IMG/VR virus record: IMGVR_UViG_2737471845_000010
Location: 1 to 16,161 of that record
Reading direction: 5' to 3' (one strand)
Source: a virus
Lineage: Duplodnaviria > Heunggongvirae > Uroviricota > Caudoviricetes
Length of the DNA stretch: 16,161 nt
Positions within the stretch are counted from its first letter, which is position 1, and the number at the start of each line of letters is the position of its first letter. Below the pieces are notes generated by a model. It was not told the DNA's origin. It saw nothing but the letters and a program-made list of their open reading frames with translations, and did no database searches. Shown piece by piece: positions 1,260-16,161 of the stretch. A program made the translations under genes and the position numbers.

Positions 1260-1320
1260 AAGAAATCAATTCCAGCCAGGCTGGCTGAGTTAACACAGGT
1301 CTTAGAATGAGGGAACTTCT

Positions 1321-2331: not shown

Positions 2332-2350
2332 TCGGGCTGTCTGGTTTCAA
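2321..2350. terminator. hairpin AGCCCGA-gtaa-TCGGGCT overlapping the stop codon of the 336-aa gene, between convergent genes
   Basis: Perfect 7-bp inverted repeat at 2321..2338 followed by a moderately T-containing tract; lies between the 1321..2331 gene and the 3' end of Q. Confidence 0.4.
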
Positions 2351-2727
2351 GATTCCACTTCGGCATCCATTTCTAAACTTACATCCAACATACTCAGGCA
2401 ACCGTCGATAAACCCTTCAGCCATCTGTATCTCTATACGTATCAATTTCTCATCCTTCCAACGCGCCTTTGCAATCTTGCGCTTGGATATCCTGTATAAA
2501 TAATGTGCCACAAGAAGCGAATGCTCATAAGGCCTTTTTTGCTTTAAACAAGCAAGACAACCTTCAATAATTAATGCGTCACTATCTGAACAAGCCAGGC
2601 GTTTCTTACTGGTATAGGGCAGAAGTCCCTTAAACCCGGCAGCTATAGGTGAATAGTCCACACCCGAGCTATCACTAGCCGCCCATGCCCCCCAACGCTC
2701 AAGAACCATCTGAATATCACGCGCCAT
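2347..2727 (-). CDS. late-gene antiterminator Q (phage 21/82/DLP12 QuuD-like family)
   Basis: Translation MARDIQMVLERWGAWAA…IAAGFKGLL… matches my recollection of Q-family proteins of about 127 aa. ATG at 2727 preceded by GGTGG. Sits immediately downstream of rusA, as in the DLP12-type nin region. Confidence 0.8.
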   Translation of the reverse strand: MARDIQMVLERWGAWAASDSSGVDYSPIAAGFKGLLPYTSKKRLACSDSDALIIEGCLACLKQKRPYEHSLLVAHYLYRISKRKIAKARWKDEKLIRIEIQMAEGFIDGCLSMLDVSLEMDAEVES

Positions 2728-3088
2728 CGTTACCACCTGTAATTTCGTAAATCTTCACACCCAGCCGACCACCAGGTACGCGCTGACCGCGCACAATATT
2801 AATTTCATCAAACTGCTCGTCGTCGATAAGCAACCCCGCATGTGTCAGTGCATCCAGTGGTGCTTTCAGAATATTGTCCAGGTCACGACGGCGCTTATCC
2901 GGTGGCTCTGCAGTAATTTTTATTGCCAGCCTTCCGGACAGATTTAATTTCAGCCGCTGCTGGCGAACAATGAGCGCCACATCACGGCGATAACGCTCAC
3001 CGGCTTTTGATACAAAATATGTGCTGCCACGACGTCGCCAGTAGGTGTTTACCGTCGGCGGGTAAGGCAAAACAAACTCTATACGCAT
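2717..3088 (-). CDS. rusA: RusA-family Holliday junction resolvase
   Basis: Translation MRIEFVLPYPPTVNTYWRRRG…DKRRRDLDNILKAPLDALTHAGLLIDDEQ… carries the RusA hallmark segments (PPS/TVN…Y; RRRDLDN; DAL…AG…DD). RBS AGAGG 7 nt upstream of ATG 3088. Confidence 0.9.
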   Translation of the reverse strand: MRIEFVLPYPPTVNTYWRRRGSTYFVSKAGERYRRDVALIVRQQRLKLNLSGRLAIKITAEPPDKRRRDLDNILKAPLDALTHAGLLIDDEQFDEINIVRGQRVPGGRLGVKIYEITGGNDGA

Positions 3089-3100
3089 CAGTAACCTCTT

Positions 3101-4150
3101 TTACCCGAGCACGCCGGTTGCAAAGGCGTGATCAAGAAAACGAAAAATTAAATCAACCTGGGAACCATGCTTTTCTTCGAACGCCAGCGGATCCGCATGA
3201 AGTTCGTTGTGATGTTCCCGGCATAACGGTAGCGTGAAAATATCGTGGGATTTTGTTCCCATTCCGCCCTGACCATGACCAATCAGGTGATGGGGATCGT
3301 CGGCTGGCTTACCACAGCACGCACACGGCTGTGTCTTTACCCAGCGTGTATATTTCTCATTTATCCAACGGCGACGTTTAGGTCGCTTCATGAAAGATTC
3401 CGGAGACTCCGGATCTACGGCAATGCTGACCACCGTCTTTTCCTGTGGTGCGTTCTGTTGCTGGTGGGCGTGAGGTGGTAGCGCAATATTTTTTGTGCGC
3501 TGCTTCAGTATGCTGGTAGCTGTCTGCTCTCCCGGTACGATGTCGCTTTCGCGGTACAGGGAACGGATTTTTTCCACCGGTAATCCCAGCGAACGGCGTA
3601 ATACTGCTTCCGGTAGCGCGTCCGCCACCTGATTGCAGACCGCCCACCAGGATAATTCAGCCAGCGATAACTCCCGCTCCTGCGTGCCATTCATTGCGTG
3701 ACGGATGACGTCAATCATCCAGGCTGTCAGATTTTGATGAGCAAGTTGCTCTAGCGATTCCGAGGTCTGGTCGCGCAGTTGATTGTCACAGTGCCAGCAC
3801 AACACCATCGCGCCGGTACCGTAACGATGTATGACGATTTCACTGTGATGATAGTCACCATGAGGCCACTGGCAGGATTTGACATGACGCAGGAGCCAGT
3901 CAGATAGTGCACCAGCGCCGCCAGCAGCACGAATCACCCGCTCATCGCTGAAAAATGGCAGTAATGATTTATCTTCCGCCAGCGGCTGGCGAACGGCAGG
4001 AACAGCTCCGGACGGCAGACCGCGCATGTTTTTCGGTTCCGGCTCCACCAGCACTCGAGGGCTATGAAATACCTGCATGGATTCACGGCCAGGTTTAAGG
4101 ACCACCAGCCCAAGTTCCGGTACATGAACAGGTCGAAGCAATACCCGCAC
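3101..4150 (-). CDS. nin-region protein with C-terminal HNH-like zinc-binding motif (DUF968-like)
   Basis: 349-codon ORF; GTG start at 4150 preceded by GGAGG and coupled to the upstream gene's stop. C-terminus contains CACCGKPADDPHHLIGHGQGGMGTKSHD…PLCREHHNELH, a Cys/His-rich HNH-type pattern. Confidence 0.75.
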   Translation of the reverse strand: MRVLLRPVHVPELGLVVLKPGRESMQVFHSPRVLVEPEPKNMRGLPSGAVPAVRQPLAEDKSLLPFFSDERVIRAAGGAGALSDWLLRHVKSCQWPHGDYHHSEIVIHRYGTGAMVLCWHCDNQLRDQTSESLEQLAHQNLTAWMIDVIRHAMNGTQERELSLAELSWWAVCNQVADALPEAVLRRSLGLPVEKIRSLYRESDIVPGEQTATSILKQRTKNIALPPHAHQQQNAPQEKTVVSIAVDPESPESFMKRPKRRRWINEKYTRWVKTQPCACCGKPADDPHHLIGHGQGGMGTKSHDIFTLPLCREHHNELHADPLAFEEKHGSQVDLIFRFLDHAFATGVLG

Positions 4151-4151
4151 G

Positions 4152-4424
4152 TTACCTCCAGATGCGTTGCTGGAATGTGCGGGACGGACGCGGTGGGCGT
4201 TCAGAGTAAGGCAGTCTGACTGAGATTATCCAGTGTCGGAAGTCGAGGCTGAGGTCTTTCTGAAACTCGTAACCACGTCTGCGGTAGTTCTGAATTAGCC
4301 ACTCTGCCTGCTCTTCAGTGCATGGATCATGCTGGAACCAGTCGGTTTTAAATGCGCGCGAACGCCGCCCGTATCTGCTGGCAGGGGCGGTATCAGAATT
4401 GTGTAATTTGGTGTGGTGCGCCAT
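4152..4424 (-). CDS. hypothetical nin-region protein (start uncertain; may extend to TTG at 4478)
   Basis: ORF ends one base before the start of the HNH-like gene, suggesting translational coupling. First ATG is at 4424 (MAHHTKLHN…); the tracked ORF starts at TTG 4478. Neither start has a strong RBS. Confidence 0.45.
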   Translation of the reverse strand: MAHHTKLHNSDTAPASRYGRRSRAFKTDWFQHDPCTEEQAEWLIQNYRRRGYEFQKDLSLDFRHWIISVRLPYSERPPRPSRTFQQRIWR

Positions 4425-4605
4425 CTGTTTTCTCTGCTGGCGCAGCAGGTGCCAGTTGTTCAGGCTGGCGTGCGGCAATATTGTCTCTGATTTCTGTTGT
4501 CGTCAACCGCTTCTGTGCTTCCTCTCTTGATGAGTGAAGCGATTAACTTTACTATTTACTTAACAGGTTTTTCCTGTACCACGATTCCCTATACAGGAGG
4601 CCAGC

Positions 4606-4896
4606 ATGAGTGACGACAAAAAAATTGAGTTCAGCACCAGCGATGTGCTGAATGCTTTGTTGCATCGCCAGCAGAACATGCAACACCTGGCAACACAAGA
4701 AAACGTTGATAACCTCCGTCGTGAGATGGATACACGCCTGAACGTTATAGATAAGCGCCTCGACAAAATGGAGCAAGAAACCGAAAGACGGTTCAACAAG
4801 CTGGAAACCAAGTTTGATCGACTCCAGTGGTTTATTGTTGCTGCAGCTCTGGCTCTCATCTTCAAGGATTACATCTTCAGAATTATTGGTGCTTAG
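4606..4896 (+). CDS. small coiled-coil protein with C-terminal membrane anchor (96 aa), opposite in orientation to the surrounding operon
   Basis: Strong RBS AGGAGG 6 nt upstream of ATG. Charged heptad-like N-terminal region followed by the hydrophobic C-terminal stretch WFIVAAALALIF. Immediately followed by a terminator. Confidence 0.7.
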   Translation: MSDDKKIEFSTSDVLNALLHRQQNMQHLATQENVDNLRREMDTRLNVIDKRLDKMEQETERRFNKLETKFDRLQWFIVAAALALIFKDYIFRIIGA

Positions 4897-4901
4897 TAAA
4901 T

Positions 4902-4929
4902 CCGGCCCCGTTTTCGGGGCTGTCTTTTC
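4902..4929 (+). terminator. rho-independent terminator downstream of the 4606..4896 gene
   Basis: GC stem (G)GCCCCG-tttt-CGGGGC(C) followed by a T-rich tract (tgtcttttc). Confidence 0.6.
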
Positions 4930-5089
4930 ACATCTGCATCAGACTTTCCACCAACTTTTTATTGCCAGCTCCTGAAATCTGATCTACCTTATGCGCGTCA
5001 GAACGGCGCAATGCGCTCGCCTGTGATACGTTTACTTGTCATTGGTGGCAACAGATAACGGCAATTGTTGTTTCTGTTTGTTTCCTTCA

Positions 5090-5124
5090 AAAACCCCGGA
5101 CCGTCAATCCGGGGTTTTTGTTTG
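5090..5124. terminator. bidirectional rho-independent terminator (tR-like) ending the minus-strand early block
   Basis: AAAAACCCCGGA-ccgtcaa-TCCGGGGTTTTTG: perfect 7-bp GC-rich stem flanked by an A-run on one side and a T-run on the other, so it reads as an intrinsic terminator on both strands. Confidence 0.65.
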
Positions 5125-5204
5125 TTATCCCCAGCGGCAAATCGAATACACCATCAGCGCCACCGCCATCGCAATTCCTGCCGTTGTGAATGCTTCAGGC
5201 CAGG

Positions 5205-5567
5205 TCATCGTAAAATATCCTCCACGCTTATCAGTCCGTTTCGCTCCAGGTAGTCCATCACCTTATCCGGCAGTTTGCAGTCCGGCTTCGCTTTCCTCAG
5301 TTGCCAGGTTAACTGCTTTACCTGCATGGTTAACTCGTCGACCAGACGCTGATACCCCACTGGTTTGTATTCATAAAATTTACCAACTGGCGCTGCTGCC
5401 AGCGATTGCAGTGCAATTTCCAGAACAGCAATATCCATCTTATATGCGCGAATGAGGTCATGGTCGATTGTACCTGGTATGCACAGTCTCTGTGATTCAA
5501 TAGTCTCCTCTGCGTGGGCTATTAACTGCTCTTTGGTAAACCGTTCTTCTTTGGTCAAAGTCGCCAT
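5205..5567 (-). CDS. hypothetical early protein (120 aa)
   Basis: ATG at 5567 overlaps the stop of the upstream small gene; GGAAGAG upstream. No recognised motif. Confidence 0.65.
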
Positions 5568-5568
5568 T

Positions 5569-5742
5569 TTACTCTTCCACTTCGTCTTTTATTTCGTAAA
5601 TTGAGTAATTGCAGTGATTAAAGAAAACATCAATTGCCTCGTTTTCTATTTCCTCAGGAGTCGCGTCATCATCCACTTCAAATACATCTTCACGCACGCC
5701 ACCAACAATCCTCGTTTCGATAACTATTTTGAATTTTCGCAT
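5569..5742 (-). CDS. small acidic hypothetical protein (57 aa), below the ORF-track size cutoff
   Basis: Hand translation [65 protein letters not shown] upstream of ATG 5742; fills the gap between neighbouring genes. Confidence 0.5.
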
Positions 5743-5832
5743 TGTCTTACCACCATTTCTGGCAGTCTCCTGATGTTCTGAGGGTGCAGAAATCCCTCCG
5801 GTTAAGGATTTTATTTTCGATAATAATATTGG

Positions 5833-6189
5833 TTATTCTGGTCTGGTTTTTGTCGCCCTGCGTATCCGCGCTTTCACATTGCGCTCAATCTGAATTAGCT
5901 TTTCTATATTTTTACGTCTTTCCCGTTCCTCCTGACGCAATTGTTTTACATCATCTGCCAGTCTGGTTTCTCTTTTCGCCACAGAGAGCATCCAGTCAAA
6001 TGGCTCCACAACTGCACCGCAGATTTTACAACGGACATGACGCTCTTTTTCATCAACCCTGACAGAGGCGTGATGGCAATATGGTTTCTCCGATGGCTCA
6101 TAAAGAAAATTAACCTGATTACGTGGGTCATCCTCTTTTACCGGAAATAAAACAATATTACTTAACTCATCTTCTGGTTTTATTTCCAC
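5833..6189 (-). CDS. hypothetical protein with zinc-ribbon-like motif (CHH…C-x2-C)
   Basis: GTG start at 6189 preceded by AAAGGAGA; the longer tracked ORF (to 6264) would overlap the upstream gene. Contains PYCHHASVRVDEKERHVRCKICGAV. Confidence 0.6.
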   Translation of the reverse strand: MEIKPEDELSNIVLFPVKEDDPRNQVNFLYEPSEKPYCHHASVRVDEKERHVRCKICGAVVEPFDWMLSVAKRETRLADDVKQLRQEERERRKNIEKLIQIERNVKARIRRATKTRPE

Positions 6190-6190
6190 G

Positions 6191-6520
6191 TCACTCTCCT
6201 TTGATGCGAATACCTGCAACACGCAGTGCATGCTCCAAATCAGCCAGATAAAGCCAGCGCCCATGCTCTTTGGGCATCATGACATATTGCTCATCGGCAT
6301 TTATCGGATGACCCCTTCGAAGGTCATAGCAAGTCGGTAAATGCACTGCCCTTGCTTCCAGCTCTGCAATGCGTTTATCTCTGGCTTCCAGTTCGTCCAG
6401 TAACGCCAGCACAACCTGCGGTGTGACTTTCATGCGAAACGCCAGCAGTTTCTGAGGTGTGGACACTGTTTTTATTGCCTCTGCCACATCACGCAACGCC
6501 TGGTTGTTAATCTGATTCAC
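6191..6520 (-). CDS. hypothetical early protein with coiled-coil segment (109 aa)
   Basis: GTG start at 6520 with GAGGTG RBS; start overlaps the stop of the upstream gene (GTGA). LLDELEARDKRIAELEA heptad-like segment. Confidence 0.65.
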   Translation of the reverse strand: MNQINNQALRDVAEAIKTVSTPQKLLAFRMKVTPQVVLALLDELEARDKRIAELEARAVHLPTCYDLRRGHPINADEQYVMMPKEHGRWLYLADLEHALRVAGIRIKGE

Positions 6521-6831
6521 TGCGTCACCTCACGATTCCTCAACCAGATACAAACCGGTCCATCCTCGGTGTCATGAATGGAGCCAATAAACCAGCCCTC
6601 ACCCTCTGGTCGTTCAGGTTCCCATGCGGAAATATCGGGACCATCTGCATCCGGGTTAAAATCATCTTCATCCATACTGCGAATAGTCCACTGAAGATTA
6701 TTTGCCTTCATCCAGGCGTTAAATTCTTCCGTCGAAATATACTCCCGGCCATCACAAAATTTTTCATATTCAGGATGCGTCCAGCAGCCATATTCATCAC
6801 GTTCTACCGGCAGTTCTTTGATTTCAATCAT
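6517..6831 (-). CDS. hypothetical acidic early protein (104 aa)
   Basis: Internal ATG at 6831 preceded by GGAG at suitable spacing; the first ATG of the tracked ORF (6858) has no RBS. Confidence 0.6.
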   Translation of the reverse strand: MIEIKELPVERDEYGCWTHPEYEKFCDGREYISTEEFNAWMKANNLQWTIRSMDEDDFNPDADGPDISAWEPERPEGEGWFIGSIHDTEDGPVCIWLRNREVTQ

Positions 6832-6844
6832 AACATTAACTCCA

Positions 6845-7021
6845 TTAAGATAATGCAAAACAAATTAACCACACCACGACAACCGATGCTATTAACACCC
6901 TGATTGCAAACAGCGGGCTGATATGTCGAAAAGGATTTTCCCAGATAATAAAAGCCGCTGCCAGAAATGCACTGATAAGTAAAACAATAACAAACAGCTC
7001 AATTTTGATTATCCAGAACAT
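6845..7021 (-). CDS. small hydrophobic membrane protein (58 aa)
   Basis: Two predicted hydrophobic helices (IIKIELFVIVLLISAFLAAAFII and LFAIRVLIASVVVVWLICFAL); start overlaps the upstream stop. Confidence 0.45.
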   Translation of the reverse strand: MFWIIKIELFVIVLLISAFLAAAFIIWENPFRHISPLFAIRVLIASVVVVWLICFALS

Positions 7022-7023
7022 AT

Positions 7024-7320
7024 TCACTGCATCGCCTTCTGTAAAATAACCGCATGCCCCAGCTTCTCCGCCAGCGCCAGTTCTGCCTTAGCACCCGCCG
7101 ACCGCTGCCAGCCATTCAGCATGTAAATCGCATCCACGCAACGTATCATCGCCATGCAGATATCCATGTACTGCGACTGAGTCAGTCCGTCCGGAAGTAC
7201 TGCCGGGTTTAAGACGGTATGCCCTTCCCGTTTCAGTTCCTCTTCTGCCTTGTGGAACGCCTCACGGTTGAAATTTTTATACCCGGTCATCGGACCGGCG
7301 ATATAAACCCTCACCCTCAC
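7024..7320 (-). CDS. DUF4406-like protein (nucleoside 2-deoxyribosyltransferase-like fold)
   Basis: GTG start with strong AGGAGGTG RBS, overlapping the upstream stop. N-terminal RVYIAGPMTG…FN…AF motif typical of this family. Confidence 0.7.
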   Translation of the reverse strand: MRVRVYIAGPMTGYKNFNREAFHKAEEELKREGHTVLNPAVLPDGLTQSQYMDICMAMIRCVDAIYMLNGWQRSAGAKAELALAEKLGHAVILQKAMQ

Positions 7321-7709
7321 TCAATCACCTCCTGAAAATTACCCCGATAGAACGCCAGTACACGTTGCATTGATTCGCTGTTACGGCATTCCCGGCAAAT
7401 TATGTTCATGTCTCTGTCGTAGCGACGGATTTCACCATCAGGTAACTTCCGGACCAGTGCCGGGTCAGCTTTCTTCGGAGTTTTACACCACGCCTGATAC
7501 GCCTGTTCTGATACAAAAACACCGTGTTTACCGGATATGTACAAATCACCACAAGCAACCACATCCACAAGACAACGTCTGACCGTATGCCAGCCCGCCC
7601 CCGTTGCCCTCTCCAGTTGCGACATCGTCATGCGTTTGTTCCTGTGTATCAGCCCGATAATTCGCGCCTTCAGTTCTTCCCGCTGTTCGGGTGTAAAAAC
7701 GCTTGCCAT
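7317..7709 (-). CDS. hypothetical protein with predicted HTH segment (130 aa)
   Basis: AGGAGG RBS upstream of ATG 7709; segment MTMSQLERATGAGWHTVRRCL resembles a helix-turn-helix. Confidence 0.7.
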   Translation of the reverse strand: MASVFTPEQREELKARIIGLIHRNKRMTMSQLERATGAGWHTVRRCLVDVVACGDLYISGKHGVFVSEQAYQAWCKTPKKADPALVRKLPDGEIRRYDRDMNIICRECRNSESMQRVLAFYRGNFQEVIE

Positions 7710-7723
7710 GAGTCCTCCTGAAA

Positions 7724-8470
7724 TTACTTCACAACCCTTAAATGGCTGACATTTGAACGCCAGCTCTCCCAGTTAAAATTCACCCAGCGACCACCGTTCA
7801 TGGTCATGCGGTCCATCACGCGCTCGCCAAGCAGCGTATTCATTGCCGTATGGTTCAGGTTCGTCAGCATCCCGACGCTGTGCATCGAGGCTGTTCTGCG
7901 ATCGACTATCTGGTTCAGTGTGACCTGTTCGTTACGCGTATCCCGCTGCATACCAATTTCATCCAGGACAAGCAGGTCAACTTCACACAACCCCTGCAAA
8001 AATTTTTCGCCCGAGTTTTTGTTGTCGTAGTTGCCGTGTAACGCCAGCATCACATCCGCCACCGTCACCACAATCACGCTGCGACCTTTCGCCAGAAGAT
8101 GGTTGCCAATGGCTGCTGCCAGATGATTCTTTCCGGTACCCGGCTTACCGCTGAACACGAAATTTGTGCATCCGGTCATCATTTCTTCCGCGATGGATTT
8201 TGCCTGGCTCAGCGCGTGGCGTTGGCCATCGTTCTTCACCTGGTAATTCGCAAACGAACACTTCTGGTGCAACAGTTGGATACCGGAACGCTTCATAATT
8301 TTCTCCACCCGGATCTGGCGATTCTGGCGGTTAATTTCCTCACTACGCTTTCGCCCTTCTGCAAGCTGCCACTCTCGCCACTCGTCCACTGTCCGGTACG
8401 GCGCGGTTACATGCTGCGGGGCCAGCTTACGGATACGCTCAAGAACACCACCTGCCGCAATATTTTTCAT
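7724..8470 (-). CDS. DnaC/IstB-like AAA+ replication protein (helicase loader; Rac YdaV-like)
   Basis: Walker A motif GKPGTGKNHLAAAIG and Walker B-like LLVLDEIG; positioned immediately downstream of the replication initiator gene. Confidence 0.9.
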   Translation of the reverse strand: MKNIAAGGVLERIRKLAPQHVTAPYRTVDEWREWQLAEGRKRSEEINRQNRQIRVEKIMKRSGIQLLHQKCSFANYQVKNDGQRHALSQAKSIAEEMMTGCTNFVFSGKPGTGKNHLAAAIGNHLLAKGRSVIVVTVADVMLALHGNYDNKNSGEKFLQGLCEVDLLVLDEIGMQRDTRNEQVTLNQIVDRRTASMHSVGMLTNLNHTAMNTLLGERVMDRMTMNGGRWVNFNWESWRSNVSHLRVVK

Positions 8471-8476
8471 AACCCG

Positions 8477-9424
8477 TTACCCCCTGAATCCCGGCGGAAT
8501 TTCGGTATCCGGTTCAGAAATGTGATTCACACAACGCTGTACAGGCGAACGCCCCAGGCGGATGACCAGTTCGTCCCATTTTTCACGAAGCTTTGACGGG
8601 CTCATGACGTTTCTTACCCAGAATGGATCCCGTTGTACCCGACTGAACATTTCGCAAATTTGCCTGTGAGTTCTGCCATCCAGCACCCGCATTGTGCGCA
8701 CGTCATTGGCCCATGCTGTCCAGTTGGGTTCTTTCGGTCGCGTAATCTCGCCATCATCGCTGGCAGCCTGTTCGTAAAGACTCACGATTCGCCCCCAGAT
8801 CCACTGCGCACACGTCAAATCTTCCTGGCTGCCCCACTGGCGTTTTTTCGCACTGAACACAACCGCGTCAGGATGTCGGGTTAAAAAATCCTGTTCAGCC
8901 GTCTCCTCGTCCGGTTGCGAAGCTTCCGGACGAAAAGATCTTTTATCTGACGGATCAGGTTTTAATACTGACGGATCGGGGCCAACCATCGCCCCCCTAT
9001 CCGGCTGTTTTTTATCAATGGTTGATCCATCAAAATTTGAGGGGTCAACCGTTGAGGGGGCAATATTTGACGGGTCATTTTTTGCCTGGCTAATTTTTCT
9101 TTTCGGTTTATATGCCTCACGCGCCGCCGCTGCTGCTGCTTCGAGTTTTTCCACATTAAGACGGTAGATATTGCTTTCATTACGCCCACCGACCTTACGT
9201 TCCTCCTTCGTCAGCCAGCCGTTCTTTTCCAGTTCCGCTATCGCCGCTTTAACCGTTGATTCACTCTTTGCCCCAATCTGACGACGAATGGTCTCCACTG
9301 CAGGCCATGACACACCTTCGTCATTGCTGTAATCTGCAAGGCGAGCCATTACTGCCACCCTGGATAAGATCATGCCGGTGAAGGCACACCCTTCCCAGAC
9401 AAGACCATGAAGCTTGCTGCTCAT
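8477..9424 (-). CDS. phage replication initiation protein (lambda O-like functional analogue) with internal iteron origin
   Basis: GGAG RBS upstream of ATG 9424. N-terminal HTH-like segment; central repetitive DPSN/DPSV/DGST protein segment encoded by the iterons; followed by the DnaC-like gene. Confidence 0.85.
   Translation of the reverse strand: MSSKLHGLVWEGCAFTGMILSRVAVMARLADYSNDEGVSWPAVETIRRQIGAKSESTVKAAIAELEKNGWLTKEERKVGGRNESNIYRLNVEKLEAAAAAAREAYKPKRKISQAKNDPSNIAPSTVDPSNFDGSTIDKKQPDRGAMVGPDPSVLKPDPSDKRSFRPEASQPDEETAEQDFLTRHPDAVVFSAKKRQWGSQEDLTCAQWIWGRIVSLYEQAASDDGEITRPKEPNWTAWANDVRTMRVLDGRTHRQICEMFSRVQRDPFWVRNVMSPSKLREKWDELVIRLGRSPVQRCVNHISEPDTEIPPGFRG
8946..9115. repeat. candidate origin of replication: about five iterons (consensus TGA(C/G)GG(A/G)TC) plus adjacent AT-rich tract, inside the initiator gene
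   Basis: Copies at approximately 8948..8956, 8969..8977, 9038..9046, 9052..9060 and 9068..9076 (TGACGGATC, TGACGGATC, TGAGGGGTC, TGAGGGGGC, TGACGGGTC), followed by the AT-rich stretch 9077..9115. Architecture parallels lambda ori within gene O. Confidence 0.6.
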
Positions 9425-9447
9425 AAAAAACTCCGAACACCGTGCTT

Positions 9448-9873
9448 TTAGTGCATCACCACAGCATTTCCTGCCGGGCCACCACGATTCATCTGATTGA
9501 AACCGGCGATTGCCACTGCGACAAAATCATCAGCGTCTCTCACCAGTCGTTCCCGCGTCTCCACCAACTCCCGAAAATAGACTGAACTGTGGCTGCGCAT
9601 CCGGGCCACCAGCAGAGGTGGCATTGCTTTTTCGATAGCCGGTAACAACGCCTGAATTTTTTTAACCGCATCAGGAGTGTCTTTCTCTACCCAGCGGAAA
9701 ATTTTCTGGGTATTGCGAGCCAGGGCTTCCGGATGGCTATCGTCATACAGTTCAGGAAACGTCATACCCAACTCAAAATAAGCCTGGGTTATTCCAGCTG
9801 CTGGAACTTTTTCACCGTCCGGATGCGCCCAGACATTCATCGCCATGCGGATGTGTTCATGCTTGATTTTCAT
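9448..9873 (-). CDS. YdaT-like (CII-position) regulatory protein
   Basis: Begins MKIKHEHI, as I recall for the Rac YdaT family. ATG overlaps the stop of the Cro-like gene (ATGA). Position corresponds to cII in lambdoid layouts. Confidence 0.7.
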   Translation of the reverse strand: MKIKHEHIRMAMNVWAHPDGEKVPAAGITQAYFELGMTFPELYDDSHPEALARNTQKIFRWVEKDTPDAVKKIQALLPAIEKAMPPLLVARMRSHSSVYFRELVETRERLVRDADDFVAVAIAGFNQMNRGGPAGNAVVMH

Positions 9874-10085
9874 GAATCATTCTTTCCTTCGTTCGAGGTG
9901 CTATCCTGCTTCTTGTAAAGTTCTGGGTTGTATTTCAATTCACCGTTAGTAATTTCATCCAGCTCCATTGCTCGAAGTTTGGGAATAACTGCTTTCCACC
10001 GCACAACAGCCACATGTGAAATTCCAAGAGCCTCAGCTACTAGTCGCTTTTTTTTGAAATAGCGCAGAACATCATCTTTGAACAT
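9870..10085 (-). CDS. Cro-like repressor (DicC/YdaS-like small HTH protein)
   Basis: AGGAGAG RBS upstream of ATG 10085. 71 aa with HTH (RLVAEALGISHVAVVRWKA). Divergent from the CI-like repressor gene across an operator-bearing intergenic region. Confidence 0.8.
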   Translation of the reverse strand: MFKDDVLRYFKKKRLVAEALGISHVAVVRWKAVIPKLRAMELDEITNGELKYNPELYKKQDSTSNEGKNDS

Positions 10086-10114
10086 AAAACTCTCCTGTTA
10101 TTTCGAGCAGGAGG

Positions 10115-10176
10115 GTAACAATAGTTACATAGCAATGTCAACCATAGCAACATCACTTGGTAGTAACATTGGTTAC
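10115..10176. promoter_or_regulatory. OR-like operator region: two GTAAC-N4-GTTAC palindromes between the divergent cro-like and repressor genes
   Basis: GTAACaataGTTAC at 10115..10128 and GTAACattgGTTAC at 10163..10176, the latter directly abutting the repressor ATG. A TTGACA hexamer is present on the minus strand in this interval. Confidence 0.6.
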
Positions 10177-10851
10177 ATGAAAAACACTATCAGCGAACGT
10201 ATTCGGAATCGTCGAAAAGACGTTGGATTAACCCAACAGCAGGTTGCGAAAGCAATCGGCATATCTCGTGTATCCGTAACAAAATGGGAAAATGGCTCTT
10301 CAAAACCTGACGGTGAGAATTTACATCTACTGTCAAAATTGCTTTCCAAATCTCCTGAATGGATTCTTTATGGAAAGGACGGTCACGATAAAACCGATGA
10401 TCTGCGTCTGAATCAGTACCTTTACATTAGTGACAACATCGCCCGGTTGCCCGTTTTAACGTGGGAACAGGCTGGTTATTGGGATATGAGTTGCCCAGTA
10501 ACCGAGATTCCTGGTATTAAGAATTGGGTTGATGTCATGACAAAAACCGCTGAAAACTCTTTTTTATTGCATGTTGAGGGAGATGCGATGACAAACTCTA
10601 ACGGCCTCCCAACCATCCCCGACGGATCTACCGTGCTGATCACACCATGCTCAAGTAACATTAGAGAACTGGCGGGGAAAATAATCTTAATCCAATTGGA
10701 AGGAACGCCAAACGTAACACTAAAAAAAGTTGCGATTGACGGACCAAACATCTATCTGTTGTCACTGAATCCGCTTTACAAACCCATCGAACTGAATGGC
10801 GGTTACACCATTAAAGGTAAAGTTTCACAAATACATCAATACTTAGATTGA
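10177..10851 (+). CDS. CI-like prophage repressor (N-terminal XRE-type HTH plus C-terminal S24 LexA-like domain)
   Basis: HTH segment LTQQQVAKAIGISRVSVTKWENG. C-terminal domain aligns by eye with lambda CI (…EGDAMT…; …VTLKKV…). Start chosen at ATG 10177; the tracked ORF begins at TTG 10078 and would overlap the operators and the cro RBS. Confidence 0.85.
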   Translation: MKNTISERIRNRRKDVGLTQQQVAKAIGISRVSVTKWENGSSKPDGENLHLLSKLLSKSPEWILYGKDGHDKTDDLRLNQYLYISDNIARLPVLTWEQAGYWDMSCPVTEIPGIKNWVDVMTKTAENSFLLHVEGDAMTNSNGLPTIPDGSTVLITPCSSNIRELAGKIILIQLEGTPNVTLKKVAIDGPNIYLLSLNPLYKPIELNGGYTIKGKVSQIHQYLD

Positions 10852-10855
10852 GTCA

Positions 10856-10883
10856 GAACCCGCATTCATTGCGGGTTTTTTAT
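10856..10883 (+). terminator. rho-independent terminator after the repressor gene
   Basis: AACCCGCA-ttcatt-GCGGGTT stem-loop followed by TTTTTT. Confidence 0.7.
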
Positions 10884-10912
10884 GCCCTCAAACGTACCTT
10901 TTGCAACATCGT

Positions 10913-10939
10913 ATTGACTCATGTGGTAACTCTTGTTAC
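10913..10939 (+). promoter_or_regulatory. OL/PL-like element: TTGACT hexamer followed by the third operator palindrome GGTAACtcttGTTACC
   Basis: Same GTAAC-N4-GTTAC half-sites as the two OR sites (10925..10938), located at the head of the plus-strand early-left operon. The -10 element is not clear. Confidence 0.5.
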
Positions 10940-11259
10940 CTTAACAACATACCAACCCACTCCGCCCCACAGAATGCAGGGCAATACTTCGAGTTACCAG
11001 GCAGTGGTCAGGGGGTAAGTAGCCAGCCCGAGGCGTAAGAACATGACGGCAGGGTTCAACTTTAACTATGCAGCAGGTTTTTGTTCCGCTACCCCGGCGT
11101 TAAGGGGAAACAGAGGATTTCTCAGTGGGCGAAGTCAAACATCAGAATGGAAGGCATCCTGGGCTCTGCAAAGAAGCAGCAATGGCGCTTTATATTGACA
11201 TCAGCGCCATTGCCGGACAGCTAAGAATTATCAGGGCGGTAACTAAGCGGTATGCGCCT

Positions 11260-11460
11260 TTACTTCAGAAAGTCTCTTGTGAGTGCACCGAAGATATTGT
11301 CAACGATTTCGTCATCGAACTGCGAAGACTCATCTTCAGTTACAAGGTGACCACAATTTTTGCAGATGGCTCCCGCGAAACTGTCAGAGCCCTGCGGCTT
11401 AAAGGATGTGTCAAAGACTTCGCCACCACATTCTGGGCAAGAAAACTTGATTGTATTCAT
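11260..11460 (-). CDS. small zinc-ribbon protein (66 aa), antisense to the early-left operon
   Basis: Two CxxC pairs (CPECGG … CKNCGH) with an acidic C-terminus; GAGAGGAAA RBS about 6 nt upstream of ATG. The overlapping plus-strand ORF 11125..11481 is the alternative reading and contains several rare AGA/AGG codons. Confidence 0.45.
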   Translation of the reverse strand: MNTIKFSCPECGGEVFDTSFKPQGSDSFAGAICKNCGHLVTEDESSQFDDEIVDNIFGALTRDFLK

Positions 11461-11552
11461 AACCAATTTCCTCTCGAGTAACAGACCCCTCAGAGGATAC
11501 CACCTCGCCTGACGTGGTTAAAAGCAGGCAACGCTAACCACAAGGAGCCGAC

Positions 11553-11750
11553 ATGCAGAAACGAGAACCCGTCATCATCGCGCCAGACTATACCGATGAT
11601 GAACTTTATGAGTGGATGCGCCAGAAAATTAATGCAGCGCAGGATTTGAAATGGGCCAATGAAGCTAGGGCTAAGCAGGCTGAAAATCTGTCCGCTCTGG
11701 AGCAGGATATCACCAGGCTGGAAAAAGCAGCGGCATTAAGCATTGCCTGA
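11553..11750 (+). CDS. small hypothetical early-left protein (65 aa)
   Basis: RBS AAGGAG 6 nt upstream of ATG; coiled-coil-like C-terminus. Confidence 0.65.
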   Translation: MQKREPVIIAPDYTDDELYEWMRQKINAAQDLKWANEARAKQAENLSALEQDITRLEKAAALSIA

Positions 11751-11793
11751 ATGATTACATACCCACGTTAATAGCTAACCAACGAGGCTAATA

Positions 11794-12201
11794 ATGGAAT
11801 TTAAAGATTTACCAAAAGAAATCCAGACAATTGCTGCAACGACTCTCGGTGATAGTCTGGTGAAAATTGACCCGGCATACACCAAAAAAGAAACCATCGA
11901 TAATATGGTTCGTAATGTGCGCAATGCTTTTTCTGGGCTATATGGTTCTGATAATCAAAAGCAGGAAAGCGATGTTAATAAACGGGTAATTTCTGTTTGC
12001 GTGAATGGCCATGTTCTTTCATCAATCAAAACAGAAACGGCGACAGTCTTCGATTGCCTTTGCATTGTACAGAGCCTTGTTGATGCCCTGTTTCGTTCAG
12101 TGAATTTAGAAAATGACGCAAATCTGCGAGGGCGCACAATAGCACATCCATATGCACATACTTTAGGCTCTGTGGATATCAAAGATCCCACAAATCTTTA
12201 A
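11794..12201 (+). CDS. hypothetical early-left protein (135 aa)
   Basis: RBS-like ACGAGG upstream of ATG; 3' end overlaps the convergent minus-strand gene by about 23 bp. Confidence 0.6.
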   Translation: MEFKDLPKEIQTIAATTLGDSLVKIDPAYTKKETIDNMVRNVRNAFSGLYGSDNQKQESDVNKRVISVCVNGHVLSSIKTETATVFDCLCIVQSLVDALFRSVNLENDANLRGRTIAHPYAHTLGSVDIKDPTNL

Positions 12202-12412
12202 TGAAATAGTTAACGCGAATTGTACTTGCTCTTTCAGTTGCTTTCAGAATACGCGTTGAAACTGCTGGCGGTAATTTGGTATTCCATTTATTAAAATCAT
12301 GCCCGGGAAAGTACTCTTCGAAAATACTTTTAACTGCAGACTCGCCTATTGAAATGCTGCTTACCATGCGATTTTGATAAAGGCATTTAGCAATAAGAGT
12401 TGATTTTAACAT
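12179..12412 (-). CDS. hypothetical 77-aa protein encoded opposite to the early-left operon
   Basis: Strong RBS AGGAGGG 4 nt upstream of ATG 12412; convergent 3' overlap with the 11794..12201 gene. Confidence 0.55.
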   Translation of the reverse strand: MLKSTLIAKCLYQNRMVSSISIGESAVKSIFEEYFPGHDFNKWNTKLPPAVSTRILKATERASTIRVNYFIKDLWDL

Positions 12413-12747
12413 TCACCCTCCTGAAGGTTGGTAATTAAGGAGTTCTCCACGGGTGGGGTGGAGTGCGTGCGCCGGACACGGGTGAGCATCCGGCACTGAC
12501 AGTTTACTGAAAGGATATTTCTCTGAAAAGTCAGAGCATAACGCGAAAGCGCACGGCGAGGTTGCTGGTTCATAGATAGCCTGTCGTTAAATTTTCGTCG
12601 ACCGTGCGCTTCCGGTTGTGGCACCCCGCGAAATGGCGCGGCGGTAAGTATGGCGGGGTTATCCTTACCCCCACTGGTGGCACCGGGTTGTCAGGTTGAC
12701 CATACGCCTGAGTGACAACCCCGCCACAACATCTCCATGTTGAGGCT

Positions 12748-12802
12748 TGTGTGAGACCTTTGGCGGCATCAGTTTAATTGCTGGCTGATGTCCGCCCTTT
12801 TT
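12748..12802 (+). ncRNA. dicF: DicF-like small RNA (cell-division inhibitor sRNA family) ending in an intrinsic terminator
   Basis: Sequence …CCTTTGGCGGCATCAGTTTAATTGCTGGCTGATGTCCGCCCTTTTT closely resembles my recollection of E. coli DicF (GGCGG…AUCAGUUU…CCGCCCUUUUU). Long imperfect hairpin GGCGGCATCAG / CTGATGTCCGCC plus T-run. Located directly upstream of a dicB homologue, as in Qin. 5' boundary is approximate. Confidence 0.55.
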
Positions 12803-12985
12803 AAAGTGAATTTTGCGATGCGGTGAATGCGGCTAAGCGCACGCGGAACAGTTAAAAAGGCCAGTTGACTTCCGTATTGGTTCTTATGGGTGGGTTCTCT
12901 GTATCCGGCGTTAATTGTTAACTGGTTAACGTCACCTGGAGGCACCAGGCACCGTATCACAAAATTCATTGTTGAGGACGCGATA

Positions 12986-13174
12986 ATGGAAACGTTATTA
13001 CCAAACGTTAATACGTCTGAAGGTTGTTTTGAAATCGGTGTCAGAATCAGTAACCCTGTATTTACTGAAGATGCCATTAATAAGAGAAAACACGAACGGG
13101 AGCTATTAAATCAAATATGCATTGTTTCAATGCTGGCCCGTTTACGCCTGATGCAAAAAGGACGCTGCCAATGA
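12986..13174 (+). CDS. dicB: DicB-like cell division inhibitor (62 aa)
   Basis: Translation METLLPNVNTSEGCFEIGVRISNPVFTEDAINKRKHERELLNQICIVSMLARLRLMQKGRCQ is near-identical to the E. coli DicB sequence as I recall it. GAGGA RBS; the tracked ORF's upstream extension is not needed. Confidence 0.8.
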   Translation: METLLPNVNTSEGCFEIGVRISNPVFTEDAINKRKHERELLNQICIVSMLARLRLMQKGRCQ

Positions 13175-13374
13175 ATACAGCATTTGCACTCGTTCTGACA
13201 GTTTTTCTTAATACAGGCGAACCAGTCGATCTTGTTATTGGTATACATGACTCAATGAAAGAATGCATGGCTGCCGCAGCGGAACAGAAAATTCCCGGCA
13301 ACTGTTATCCGGTTGATAAAGTTATTCGCATGGACAATAACGAAATCCCGGCAGGACTTAAAACAGCACCGTAA
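13171..13374 (+). CDS. ydfD: YdfD-like small membrane/lysis protein (67 aa)
   Basis: ATG overlaps the dicB stop (ATGA). N-terminal hydrophobic helix AFALVLTVFL, then …CMAAAAEQKIPGNCYPVDKVI…, resembling Qin YdfD from memory. Same gene order as Qin dicB-ydfD. Confidence 0.6.
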   Translation: MNTAFALVLTVFLNTGEPVDLVIGIHDSMKECMAAAAEQKIPGNCYPVDKVIRMDNNEIPAGLKTAP

Positions 13375-13454
13375 TTAATATCCGGTTTCATTTTTATATG
13401 CCAGCAATGGCAGGGATTTGTTCACCATTAAATCTGTAATGAGGTTAAAACAAA

Positions 13455-15917
13455 ATGAGTAAAGTTTTTATTTGCGCCGCCATTCCGGACGAACAGGCAA
13501 TAAAGGAAGAAGGTGCAGTTGCTGTAGCCACTGCCATTGAAGCCGGTGACGAACGCCGCGCCCGTGCCAAATTTACCTGGCAATTCCTGGAGCAATATCC
13601 GGCTGCTCAGGACTGCGCTTATAAATTTCTTGTCTGCGAGGATAAACCCGGCATGCCCCGCCCTGCTATCGACTCTTGGGATACCGAATATATGCAGGAA
13701 AACCGCTGGGATGAGGAATCCGCTTCCTTTATTCCGGTCGAACCAGAATCCGATCCGATGAACGTCAATTTTGACAAGCTGTCCCTTGAAGTACAGAACG
13801 CGGTCCTGGTTAAGTTCGGTACATGTGAAAACATCACCGTTGATATGGCGATTGACGCGCAGGAATTACTGCAGGAAGACGTTGCTACCTTTGACGGGCA
13901 TATCGTTGAAGCACTGATGAAAACGCCTGAAATTAACGCTATGTATCCGGAACGCAAACTGTTCGCTATCGGATGGGTTAAACACAAATGTAATCCGGGT
14001 GCCAAATGGCCCGAAATTCAGGCTGAATTACGTAACTGGAAAAAACGGCAGGACGCAGAGCGCAAAGAGACTGGAAAATACACGTCTGTTGTTGATCTCG
14101 CCAGCGCCAGAGTCAATCAACAGAACACTGAAAACTCAGCAGGAAAAATCAACCCAGTCACTGCCGCCATTCGTCGCGAATACAAGCAGACATGGAAAAC
14201 GCTGGATGAAGAACTGGCCTACGCTCTCTGGCCTGGCGATATTAATGCCGGAAACATTGACGGCAGCATCCATCGCTGGGCAAAAAATGAAGTTATCGAC
14301 AAAGATCGCGAAGACTGGAAGCGCATCTCCGCATCAATGCGCAAACAGCCTGATGCGCTTCGCTACAGCCGCCAGACTATTTTTGGCCTTGTCCGTGAAC
14401 GACCGATCGACATTCACAAAGATCCCGTGGCACTGAACAAATACATCACTGAATACCTGACTACAAAGGGCGTGTTTGAAGATGACGAAGGAACAAATCA
14501 GGGCGCAGCTAATACTCTCTCGTCGCCAGTACCAGAAACTGATGCAGTGGAAACGGCAATTCCGGACAACGAAAAAACCGAATGCAAAGTGGAAGTCGAA
14601 CCATCTGTAGAGCGTGAGGGGCCGTTCTACTTCCTCTTCACCGACAAGGATGGCGAAAAATACGGTCGCGCAAACAAACTTTCTGGTCTGGATAAGGCGC
14701 TGGCTGCCGGGGCTACTGAAATCACGAAAGAAGAATATTTCGCCCGCAAAAACAGTACATACTCAGGTTCACAACAAAATACTGGTGCATCTGACACGAC
14801 CGCACAACCAGAGCCGGTAAAAGTTACCGCTGACGAAGTAAACAAAATTATGCAGGCAGCCAATATCAGCCAGCCTGACGCCGATAAGTTGCTTGCTGCC
14901 TCTCGCGGAGAATTTGTTGCAGGGATTAGCGACCCGAATGATCCGAAATGGGTTAAGGGGATCCAGACCCGCGATTCTGTAAACCAGAACCAGCAAGAAA
15001 CGGAACAAAACAGCCAAAATGCGTTACAAAACGAGCCAGAAACGAAACAACCTGAGCCAGTAGCGCAACAGGAACCGAAAAAAGTCTGCACCGCCTGCGG
15101 TCAGAGCGGTGGCGGCAACTGCCCTGATTGTGGCGCGGTGATGGGCGACGCAACATACCAGGAAACATTCGATGAAGAGAATCAGGTTGAAGTTCAGGAA
15201 AATGATCCGGAGGAAATGGAAGGCGCTGAACATCCACACAAGGAGAATGCTGGCAGCGCTCAGGACCACGCCAGCGATAATGAAACTGGCGGGACGGCAG
15301 ATCCCTTAATTGCGGTGAACGGTCATCACGTTATCACATCCACCAGCAGAGTGTGGTACCACCTGATGATCGACCTTGAAACAATGGGAACCAACACCAA
15401 TGCGCCCATCGTGGTTATTGGTGCGGTTTTCTTCGACCCACAAACAGGGGAAATCGGGCCAGTATTTTATATCGTTATCAGTCTGACTGACGCAATGAAT
15501 ACAGGGGCTGTTCCTGACGGTGGAACCATCAAATGGTGGCTGAAGCAGTCCAGTGAAGCCAGAGCTGCCATTTTAACAGGCCAGGTAAAACTGAAGGATT
15601 CCCTTTCGCGGTTTCGGGAGTTCATCAACGAATACTCAGATGAAAAATTCGTTCAGGTATGGGGTAATGGTGCAACTTTCGATAACGCAATTTTGCGCAC
15701 CTCATACGAACGTCTGGACATCCCCTGCCCGTGGCGCTACCACAACGATCGCGATGTACGCACAATCGTTGAGCTGGGAAAAACAATCGACTTTGATGCC
15801 AGAACCGTTATTCCATTCGAAGGCGTGCGCCACAATGCACTGGATGACGCCCGTCACCAGGCAAAATACGTTTCAGCAATCTGGCAAAAACTGATCCCGA
15901 ATCCGGTTGATTTTTAA
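13455..15917 (+). CDS. large early-left protein (820 aa) with C-terminal DEDDh 3'-5' exonuclease domain; resembles prophage proteins annotated as exodeoxyribonuclease VIII
   Basis: C-terminal motifs MIDLETMGT (Exo I, D-x-E), WGNGATFDNAIL (Exo II), HNALDDARHQAKY (Exo III, H-x-D). Central acidic/Q-rich low-complexity linker containing a CxxC…CxxC zinc-ribbon (CTACGQSGGGNCPDCG). Occupies the position of the recombination/exonuclease gene in the early-left operon. Confidence 0.85.
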   Translation: MSKVFICAAIPDEQAIKEEGAVAVATAIEAGDERRARAKFTWQFLEQYPAAQDCAYKFLVCEDKPGMPRPAIDSWDTEYMQENRWDEESASFIPVEPESDPMNVNFDKLSLEVQNAVLVKFGTCENITVDMAIDAQELLQEDVATFDGHIVEALMKTPEINAMYPERKLFAIGWVKHKCNPGAKWPEIQAELRNWKKRQDAERKETGKYTSVVDLASARVNQQNTENSAGKINPVTAAIRREYKQTWKTLDEELAYALWPGDINAGNIDGSIHRWAKNEVIDKDREDWKRISASMRKQPDALRYSRQTIFGLVRERPIDIHKDPVALNKYITEYLTTKGVFEDDEGTNQGAANTLSSPVPETDAVETAIPDNEKTECKVEVEPSVEREGPFYFLFTDKDGEKYGRANKLSGLDKALAAGATEITKEEYFARKNSTYSGSQQNTGASDTTAQPEPVKVTADEVNKIMQAANISQPDADKLLAASRGEFVAGISDPNDPKWVKGIQTRDSVNQNQQETEQNSQNALQNEPETKQPEPVAQQEPKKVCTACGQSGGGNCPDCGAVMGDATYQETFDEENQVEVQENDPEEMEGAEHPHKENAGSAQDHASDNETGGTADPLIAVNGHHVITSTSRVWYHLMIDLETMGTNTNAPIVVIGAVFFDPQTGEIGPVFYIVISLTDAMNTGAVPDGGTIKWWLKQSSEARAAILTGQVKLKDSLSRFREFINEYSDEKFVQVWGNGATFDNAILRTSYERLDIPCPWRYHNDRDVRTIVELGKTIDFDARTVIPFEGVRHNALDDARHQAKYVSAIWQKLIPNPVDF

Positions 15918-15983
15918 TGTTCACCCCTGATCGCCGTCCCCGAATTATATTGGCGGCGGTCATGCTGTAAGGCACGTGACCAC

Positions 15984-16161
15984 ATGTACGAATTAACTCT
16001 ATCGCCAGCAGAGATTCAAGAGATCACGAAATACGAGCGATACACAAAACAGCAACACCAGTTAAGGCTGCACGGTATCCCATTTGTAATCGGTCCTAAA
16101 AACGAACCAATAGTTCTTCGCAGGGATATTCCACACGGACTGACTACGATGCCAAAAGCAC
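15984..16161 (+). CDS. hypothetical protein, 5' portion only (continues beyond window end)
   Basis: ATG at 15984 opens a frame with no stop to the window end (MYELTLSPAEIQEITKYERYTKQQHQ…); weak RBS. Confidence 0.4.
   Translation, partial: MYELTLSPAEIQEITKYERYTKQQHQLRLHGIPFVIGPKNEPIVLRRDIPHGLTTMPKA

Follow-up and report, generated by a model that had tools for sequence, protein, structure and literature searches.

Three perfect palindromes of the form GTAAC-N4-GTTAC bracket the repressor gene in a 16,161-nt stretch of DNA (the window; positions 1 to 16,161 of IMG/VR virus record IMGVR_UViG_2737471845_000010), which is the early region of a lambdoid prophage. The three palindromes and two degenerate companion sites are very probably the operators of the P22-type lysis-lysogeny switch of this Escherichia coli prophage, as judged from sequence comparison. 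The region is a P22-type immC region with a specificity, GTAAC-N4-GTTAC, that was not found described. The operator assignment is supported because the half-sites covary with the recognition helix, being GTAGG in phage mEp390 and TTAAG in P22. Three of the sites belong to the right operator (OR), which lies between the repressor gene and a divergent cro-like gene, and two to the left operator (OL), on the far side of the repressor gene (Table 1).

Palindromic sites of the window

An exact search for GTAACNNNNGTTAC in the window gives three matches, at 10115-10128 (GTAACAATAGTTAC), 10163-10176 (GTAACATTGGTTAC) and 10926-10939 (GTAACTCTTGTTAC). The count expected by chance for GTAAC-N4-GTTAC is 0.01, as estimated from 200 dinucleotide-preserving shuffles, in which the maximum per shuffle was one and none reached three. 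When up to two mismatches are tolerated, seven further dispersed matches appear against about 4.9 expected in the window, which is background-like. The first-pass annotation of this DNA had proposed a scan for additional sites; across 50 kb of a related E. coli prophage (97.7% identical), no exact match other than these three sites is found. A one-mismatch match at 3091-3104, between RusA and DUF968, and two one-mismatch matches in the related E. coli prophage were treated as background.

The first-pass annotation had listed the three palindromes, with exact coordinates for the first two, and had placed the third at 10925-10938, one nucleotide too early. It had also placed the third palindrome next to a TTGACT hexamer and just past the repressor terminator, and both neighbours are found there, the hexamer 6 nt ahead of the site and the hairpin with its T-run 3' of the stop codon. 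The second palindrome adjoins the repressor ATG, as had been stated: the site ends at 10176 and the in-frame ATG begins at 10177. The earlier description of an OR with two visible sites is right for exact matches and incomplete for the operator as a whole, since a degenerate and positionally conserved middle site at 10138-10151 completes a tripartite OR. The ATG-proximal palindrome, which had been taken for the second OR site, corresponds instead to OR3 of a P22-like tripartite OR. The layout of OR in the window is 14-9-14-11-14, with gaps at 10129-10137 (9 nt) and 10152-10162 (11 nt).

Table 1. Operators, promoters, terminator and genes of the immunity region (PR, promoter of the cro-like gene; PL, early-left promoter; PRM, repressor maintenance promoter; positions are those of the window)
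Feature	Sequence	Position	Strand	Remarks
cro-like gene, 71 aa		9870-10085	-	Pfam P22_Cro; lytic repressor transcribed from PR; AGGAG Shine-Dalgarno upstream
PR start (predicted)		~10104	-	from the proposed -10
PR -10 (proposed)	TACCCT	10112-10117	-	overlaps first three bases of OR1; TACC(T/C)T / TACATT kept in relatives
OR1	GTAAC-AATA-GTTAC	10115-10128		perfect palindrome; overlaps PR -10; ATG-62 site in 13/13 loci
PR -35 (proposed)	TTGACA	10136-10141	-	18-nt spacer to -10; + strand TGTCAA/TGCAAA kept in relatives
OR2	TCAAC-CATA-GCAAC = TCAACCATAGCAAC	10138-10151		degenerate; overlaps PR -35 and expected PRM -35 region
OR3	GTAAC-ATTG-GTTAC	10163-10176		perfect palindrome; ATG-14 site in 13/13 loci; proposed negative-autoregulation site
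PRM -10 (proposed)	TAACAT	10164-10169	+	inside OR3; predicted transcript 5' end 10175-10177, leader 0-2 nt
Repressor gene, 224 aa		10177-10851	+	Pfam HTH_3 (E = 2.1e-16) and Peptidase_S24 (E = 7e-17)
Repressor terminator, intrinsic		10857-10881	+	hairpin with T-run; dG -17.4 kcal/mol; z = -4.9
OL2	GTACC-TTTT-GCAAC = GTACCTTTTGCAAC	10894-10907		degenerate, 3 mismatches; 32 bp upstream of OL1; weak alone
PL -35	TTGACT	10914-10919	+	6 nt before OL1
OL1	GTAAC-TCTT-GTTAC	10926-10939		perfect palindrome between PL -35 and -10; kept in 10 relatives
PL -10 (proposed)	TACCTT	10937-10942	+	overlaps last three OL1 bases; 17-nt spacer; predicted start ~10949

Conservation of the sites in related loci

Homologous loci were gathered by protein homology search, followed by collection of the contigs that encode the matches; a single-protein scan of genome contigs returned just two irrelevant Firmicutes/Mollicutes HTH matches. 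The comparison comprises 13 loci: the window, nine loci from Salmonella, Hamiltonella, Arsenophonus, Erwinia and metagenome assemblies, whose repressors are 44-68% identical to that of the window, and phages AH07, Klebsiella ST101-KPC2phi6.3 and ZF40, whose repressors are 41-44% identical and keep the catalytic serine. Phage mEp390 was added as a further phage.

Sites are present at ATG-62, ATG-39 and ATG-14 in all 13 loci. Every locus has a GTAAC-N4-G(T/G)TAC-like site directly before the conserved ATG and another that starts exactly 48 bp upstream of it, and the middle site at ATG-39 follows the pattern nnAAC-N4-nnnAC in 13 of 13. The remainder of the cro-repressor intergenic sequence cannot be aligned among the loci, yet the site positions are identical. 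The OR/OL-type arrangement proposed by the first-pass annotation is thus borne out by the CI-type repressor and P22_Cro genes that the sites flank, by their fixed positions in homologous regions of other genera and by their covariation with the recognition helix, described below.

On the OL side, hairpins equivalent to the terminator of the window also follow the repressor stop codon in relatives, and one to three sites are found 3' of the terminator in all relatives except one Salmonella locus (L005). In most relatives the promoter-proximal OL site lies 6 nt after TTGAC(A/T/G); the distance is 7 nt in L012 and the hexamer is TTGATC in L015. The hexamer TAC(C/A)TT, which starts within the last three bases of OL1, is kept in all relatives. 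Their second OL site lies 33-35 bp upstream of OL1, and OL2 of the window occupies the corresponding position, which is also that of OL2 in P22. The L005/L006 locus of Salmonella, with a repressor of 68% identity, keeps OR1 to OR3, but no OL site can be recognised in the 260 nt that follow its repressor stop codon. A different downstream gene, encoding 204 aa, follows the repressor there, which suggests a mosaic junction directly after the repressor gene.

The spacers of the two outer OR sites differ. A thymine at spacer position 2, which completes a TAnnnT hexamer, occurs in 13 of 13 OR3 sites versus 1 of 13 OR1 sites, so the OR3 spacer appears to be under constraint beyond repressor binding. 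Among the loci compared, most OR1 spacers consist of A/T only, and every OR3 spacer includes a G or C. In phage 434 the composition of the operator spacer affects affinity, and by analogy the A/T spacers of OR1 and the G/C-containing spacers of OR3 might tune affinity here.

Variation within the immunity type was followed in the best 80 IMG/VR loci (97-100% identical) returned by an alignment-based viral contig scan, which served as a population sample only; 72 of these 80 align without gaps and represent 43 haplotypes. No haplotype differs in OR3 or in the N4 spacer of any OR site. Three rare variants fall in OR half-sites, one in OR1 and two in OR2, and one of the latter changes GCAAC to GTAAC, which improves OR2. 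The spacer base 10931 is the sole variable position of OL1. The common polymorphisms, at 10111 and 10132, lie outside the sites, in other columns of the intergenic region.

Covariation of the recognition helix and the operator half-site

Helix 3 of the repressor, SRVSVTKWE, is invariant in 15 aligned homologues and is the same in AH07 and the Klebsiella phage; ZF40 has SRVTITKWE. The half-site GTAAC always occurs together with a repressor helix 3 that ends in TKW and a Cro helix that ends in RW (VRW in the window). In mEp390 and Lys8385Vzw the layout is the same, but all sites, including the middle one, use half-sites of the GTAGG/CCTAC type, and repressor helix 3 is NRVTVTGWE in mEp390 and likewise ends in VTGWE in Lys8385Vzw. 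The middle site of mEp390, TCAAG-GATT-CCTAC, is in step with its half-site. The residue that precedes the helix-3 tryptophan changes with the half-site in both repressor and Cro (Table 2), and the operator layout is common to all the half-site types, except in Morganella IME1369_02, where a leader follows the site.

Table 2. Residue before the helix-3 tryptophan and operator half-site
System	Repressor	Cro	Half-site	Helix-3 end (repressor/Cro)
Window, ZF40, AH07	K	R	GTAAC	TKW/RW
P22, phage 21	Q	Q	TTAAG	SQW/SQW
Morganella IME1369_02	Q	Q	GTAAG	TQW/CQW
mEp390	G	G	GTAGG	TGW/SGW
Lys8385Vzw	G	E	GTAGG	

This covariation is the strongest computational evidence that repressor and Cro would both read these sites. 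The residue before the helix-3 tryptophan is a candidate for a single-position specificity determinant of P22-type immunity, which would set half-site positions 4 and 5. If so, one helix-3 position changing in parallel in repressor and Cro would be a simple route to new P22-type immunity specificities.

The contact between operator and start codon is not universal in the wider family, because mEp460 and IME1369_02 differ. In mEp460 both the helix and the operators are different and no site adjoins the start codon. In IME1369_02 (L105) the operator GTAAGCTTGCTTAC adjoins an ATG that opens a 9-codon open reading frame (ORF) only, and the true repressor start lies 24 nt further on with a GGGAG Shine-Dalgarno sequence; this lineage has apparently acquired a leader that separates OR3 from the start codon.

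Start codon of the repressor gene and alternative explanations

The repressor gene probably starts at 10177 and the annotated start at 10135 is probably wrong, as comparison of the loci indicates; OR3 adjoins the ATG because the conserved start is 10177 and not 10135. The competing description accepts the sites as operators and lets the repressor start at 10135, so that 10163-10176 would lie inside the coding sequence (CDS), and the transcript would start conventionally, upstream of 10135, and not be leaderless. This is considered unlikely. It has on its side that similar N-terminal extensions are annotated in many homologues, that the population sample shows no variation in the ATG at 10135 and that the 14-codon extension MSTIATSLGSNIGY, which would precede the MKNTISER of the 224-aa form, has a look of protein-level conservation (T..T....NIGY). 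The residues that seem conserved, however, correspond exactly to the half-site bases of OR2 and OR3. The codon equivalent to 10135 is ATG, TTG, GTG or ATT in other loci, and Hamiltonella has an in-frame TAA 8 codons before the conserved ATG. In the population sample, polymorphisms within 10135-10176 are nonsynonymous in 3 of 3 cases versus 7 of 24 in the gene body (Fisher p = 0.04). Neither ATG has a usable Shine-Dalgarno sequence: a GGAGG sits 21 nt before 10135, which is too distant, and the 14 nt before 10177 are the operator, with no GGAG, GAGG or AGGA, as in 13 of 13 loci. The 5' end of the maintenance transcript is predicted at 10175-10177, in analogy with P22, where the RM transcript is annotated to start 4 nt before the c2 ATG. 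The support for the leaderless or near-leaderless repressor transcript suggested by the first-pass annotation is comparative, and consists of the conserved start, the lack of a Shine-Dalgarno sequence, the TAnnnT within OR3 and the annotated P22 start. NCBI PGAP and many database entries thus probably place the repressor start 14 codons too early, and for P0020 the annotated start even overlaps with the ATG of cro.

Two other explanations concern the sites themselves. The palindromes could be targets of the Cro-like protein alone, or of some other regulator of prophage or host (for example CII/YdaT-like), and not of the S24-domain repressor, and Cro homologues do accompany the sites in every locus examined. 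This is very improbable in view of the repressor helix 3, which is invariant among the 15 aligned homologues, with conservative changes in ZF40, and differs exactly where the half-site differs, and in view of the positions on PR, PL and the repressor start, which are those of the annotated C2-binding sites of P22; the YdaT/Phage_CP76-type neighbour of cro, moreover, is inconstant or absent while the sites persist. The idea that chance or local sequence composition produced the three matches, which would then play no part in regulation, deserves hardly any credence, even if the motif is short (10 specified bases) and the promoter scan was without result. The shuffles, the identical positions in otherwise unalignable intergenic regions and the covariation with DNA-binding helices effectively refute it.

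Several points nevertheless weigh against the assignment as operators of a P22-type switch. A generic sigma-70 promoter and terminator scan of 9800-11300 called no promoter, and the same scan also missed the obvious repressor terminator. The proposed -10 hexamers (TACCCT, TACCTT and TAACAT) fit the consensus at just 3 or 4 of the 6 positions, and no PRM -35 can be recognised. OR2 has mismatches at 4 of 10 specified bases and OL2 at 3 of 10, and they are credible through position and covariation alone. OR1 and OR3 are both perfect palindromes, which leaves the order of occupancy unreadable from the sequence. A transcript start at 10175-10177 puts the centre of OR2 near -32, on the -35 region, so activation of PRM is not assured; OR2 of lambda is centred at -42 relative to the PRM start, and in the annotated P22 arrangement the centre is likewise near -32 relative to the maintenance start. 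NCBI PGAP (WP_001394126.1, E. coli M15) starts the repressor at the equivalent of 10135, with a 717-nt CDS of 238 aa. The loci compared are mutually related, so that the counts and p-values overstate independence. Finally, a GTAAC-N4-GTTAC operator was not found described in the literature on the motif, on ZF40 operators or on the P22 repressor, OR3 and PRM.

Proposed promoters and operation of the switch

The promoters of Table 1 were positioned with the help of relatives and of the features annotated in P22, and the behaviour of the switch is proposed on the model of P22 and lambda. The CI-type repressor and the P22_Cro-family protein would each bind the 14-bp sites as dimers, through 5-bp half-sites. 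In the lysogen, repressor on OR1, over the PR -10, and on OR2, over the PR -35 and bound cooperatively, would shut PR, while repressor on OL1, between the PL -35 and -10, would shut PL, possibly with help from OL2. PL would read rightward into the early-left genes. At higher repressor levels OR3 would be filled, blocking the repressor's own promoter and start site, which would constitute negative autoregulation. Cro on the same sites would silence PRM first and PR and PL at a later stage. For the repressor mRNA, a start 0-2 nt before the AUG is predicted, with translation that does not depend on a Shine-Dalgarno sequence. All known lambdoid repressors are described as repressing PR while stimulating PRM, and as repressing PRM in turn once their concentration rises (PMC5977221).

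These results provide an operator sequence, a promoter layout and a probable correct repressor start for a common immunity type of which no experimental study was found. The immunity region is present in 702 of 5,426 complete E. coli genomes (at least 80% coverage, about 97% identity), and the type also occurs in chromosomal loci of Salmonella, Erwinia, Hamiltonella and Arsenophonus and in isolated phages of Klebsiella, Pantoea and Pectobacterium. Among the isolated phages of INPHARED no repressor is more than 45% identical to that of the window. Heteroimmunity among prophages becomes predictable, and a recurrent annotation error is corrected, with 224 aa as the likely length of the repressor in place of the annotated 238. 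The operator/repressor pair should be orthogonal to those of lambda, 434 and P22, with a possible use in synthetic circuits. Conceptually nothing goes beyond the P22/lambda paradigm; the covariation of Table 2 and the fixed alanine of the repressor are the more interesting leads, and the mis-annotated start is a further one.

Comparison with P22, lambda and phage 434

In the GenBank record of P22, the annotated C2-binding sites OR1 to OR3 extend as far as the c2 start codon, and the record also lists a 'promoter: transcription of C2 gene in lysogen' and a '5' nt of RM transcript'. The 14-bp cores of P22 (TAAAGAACACTTAA, TAAAGGAATCTTTA and TTAAGATGACTTAA) are separated by gaps of 9 and 11 nt, equal to those of the window. 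Cores of 5-4-5, gaps of 9 and 11 nt and an OR3 that reaches the repressor start are thus common to the window, P22 and phage 21, as seen in the annotated P22 and imm21 sequences. The divergent pair of an HTH and S24 repressor and a P22_Cro-family gene is also shared with P22. The annotated PRM -10 of P22, TAAGAT, occupies core positions 2-7 of OR3, where the window has TAACAT and mEp390 has TAGGAT. PL is built alike in both phages, since in P22 TTGACC is followed after 6 nt by a 14-bp core, with the -10 TAAATT over the last three nucleotides of the core and OL2 upstream of the -35.

The window differs from P22 in the half-site, which is (T)TAAG in P22 and GTAAC here, and in the residue before the helix-3 tryptophan, which is Q in both P22 proteins and K in the repressor and R in Cro of the window. 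The P22 immunity specificity (TTAAG with helix 3 ending in SQW) is therefore absent from the window, which has a different, heteroimmune specificity. The OR3 core of P22 ends 2 nt before the ATG, whereas OR3 of the window directly adjoins it, and P22 has three annotated OL sites against one strong and one weak site here. The window repressor shares only about 36% identity with the P22/21 type and has alanine in place of the catalytic serine. P22 carries C1 in the cII position, where the window encodes a YdaT-like protein.

With lambda, the window shares a tripartite OR between divergent cI and cro genes, further operators at PL beyond the repressor gene, and a repressor start codon that lacks a Shine-Dalgarno sequence. 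The cI mRNA of lambda transcribed from PRM is leaderless. The centres of the OR sites of the window lie at -17.5, -40.5 and -65.5 relative to the predicted PR start, about as for OR1, OR2 and OR3 in lambda. Lambda sites are 17 bp long versus 14 bp in the window, and the Cro protein of the window is of the P22 fold type and not of the lambda Cro type. The distance from OR3 to the repressor ATG is shorter than in lambda by about 12 bp, which places OR2 over the PRM -35 region and not beside it. In another difference from lambda, OR and OL of the window are 811 bp apart with the repressor gene alone between them.

Phage 434 (ACAA-N6-TTGT) also has a 14-bp operator with an uncontacted central spacer, but the half-site differs in length and sequence and the similarity of the window repressor to that of 434 is weak (E = 2.7e-5). 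The same layout (ATG-62, -39 and -14, with an OL1/OL2 pair) is found in AH07, ZF40 and ST101-KPC2phi6.3, which also have the half-site GTAAC, and in mEp390 and Lys8385Vzw, which have GTAGG. All five encode repressors of only 41-44% identity to that of the window, with the catalytic serine in place. No operator analysis of these five phages was found in the searchable literature.

Alanine at the catalytic serine position

Codon 137 of the repressor gene (GCG, 10585-10587) encodes alanine, giving GDAM where relatives have G(D/E)SM, and aligns with Ser149 of lambda CI. The Ala-Gly bond (EQAGYW) and the lysine (TLKK) are retained, and the reading frame is intact. Alanine is found in 72 of 72 gapless population copies, in an 89%-identical E. 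coli variant and in the 68%-identical Salmonella homologue, whereas serine is found in an 87%-identical variant and in all more distant relatives. The Ser-Lys dyad of RecA-stimulated self-cleavage, as in SOS induction, is consequently incomplete, with alanine at the nucleophile. LexA S119A and equivalent CI mutants do not self-cleave, and because the window repressor has alanine at the same serine position it is predicted not to self-cleave and not to be cleavable in the SOS response. LexA boxes that might control an antirepressor were searched for, and none lies in the window; one chance-level match is inside the portal gene of a related prophage.

A tentative reading, to which we give somewhat less than even credence, is that the switch of these E. 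coli prophages and of one Salmonella prophage is held by an alanine-fixed, SOS-blind repressor. In that case induction would take another route, such as an antirepressor or a different signal, or the module would be kept as a permanent immunity or regulatory device. The single helix-3 position that would set half-site specificity is a second, separate reading of this kind.

Prophage context and neighbouring genes

The cro-like protein matches PF14549 (P22_Cro) with 59.4 bits against a cut-off of 30.2 (E = 2.9e-16) and belongs to PHROG 409, transcription regulation. The best PDB match of the repressor is full-length lambda repressor (E = 7.8e-14), and the N-terminal domain of P22 C2 also matches (E = 2.6e-12). 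The repressor gene (+ strand, from 10177) and the cro-like gene (- strand, to 10085) are divergent and 91 nt apart. The - strand carries genes for a Q antiterminator, RusA, DUF968, DUF977, a DnaC/IstB-like loader, an O-like initiator, a CII-like protein of the YdaT family and the P22_Cro-family protein. The + strand carries the repressor with HTH_3 and Peptidase_S24 domains, small early-left genes and then a gene for an 820-aa protein with an exonuclease domain. The sites persist across the related loci although the protein encoded beside cro varies: some loci have a YdaT type, others a Phage_CP76 type and still others none. Rfam detected no RNA family in the whole window at gathering thresholds, DicF included, and related prophages carry ydfC/dicB-like genes.

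The first gene after PL could be either of two overlapping ORFs on opposite strands, 11125-11481 (+) and 11260-11466 (-). The former, of 118 aa, is the one annotated in phage records and matches PHROG 21318 (E = 2e-64, function unknown); PGAP labels the latter as 'ECs_2282 family putative zinc-binding protein'. The + strand ORF was considered as an N-type antiterminator and rejected, since it does not resemble the N_peptide protein that the Arsenophonus locus encodes in this place. At about 11014-11052, roughly 70-110 nt past the predicted PL start, lies a conserved non-coding block, (A/C)GAGTTAC...GTAAGTAGCCAGCCCGAGGCGTAAGAACATGACGGCA. It is found downstream of PL in loci L009, L015, L017 and L019 and is partly common to the Arsenophonus and metagenome loci, AH07 and ZF40; for the corresponding part of P22, the phage's record mentions an early-left leader like that of lambda. 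This block may be a leader, a nut site or a processing element. A boxA-like sequence, CGCTCTTTAA, is present in the Hamiltonella and Arsenophonus loci and not in the window.

The prophage of E. coli M15 (L016), whose immunity region is 97.7% identical to that of the window, contains IS5 and IS903B insertions and a frameshifted integrase, so this copy is probably defective. To its right lies a second group of tail-fibre and hypothetical genes, which hints at prophages in tandem or side by side.

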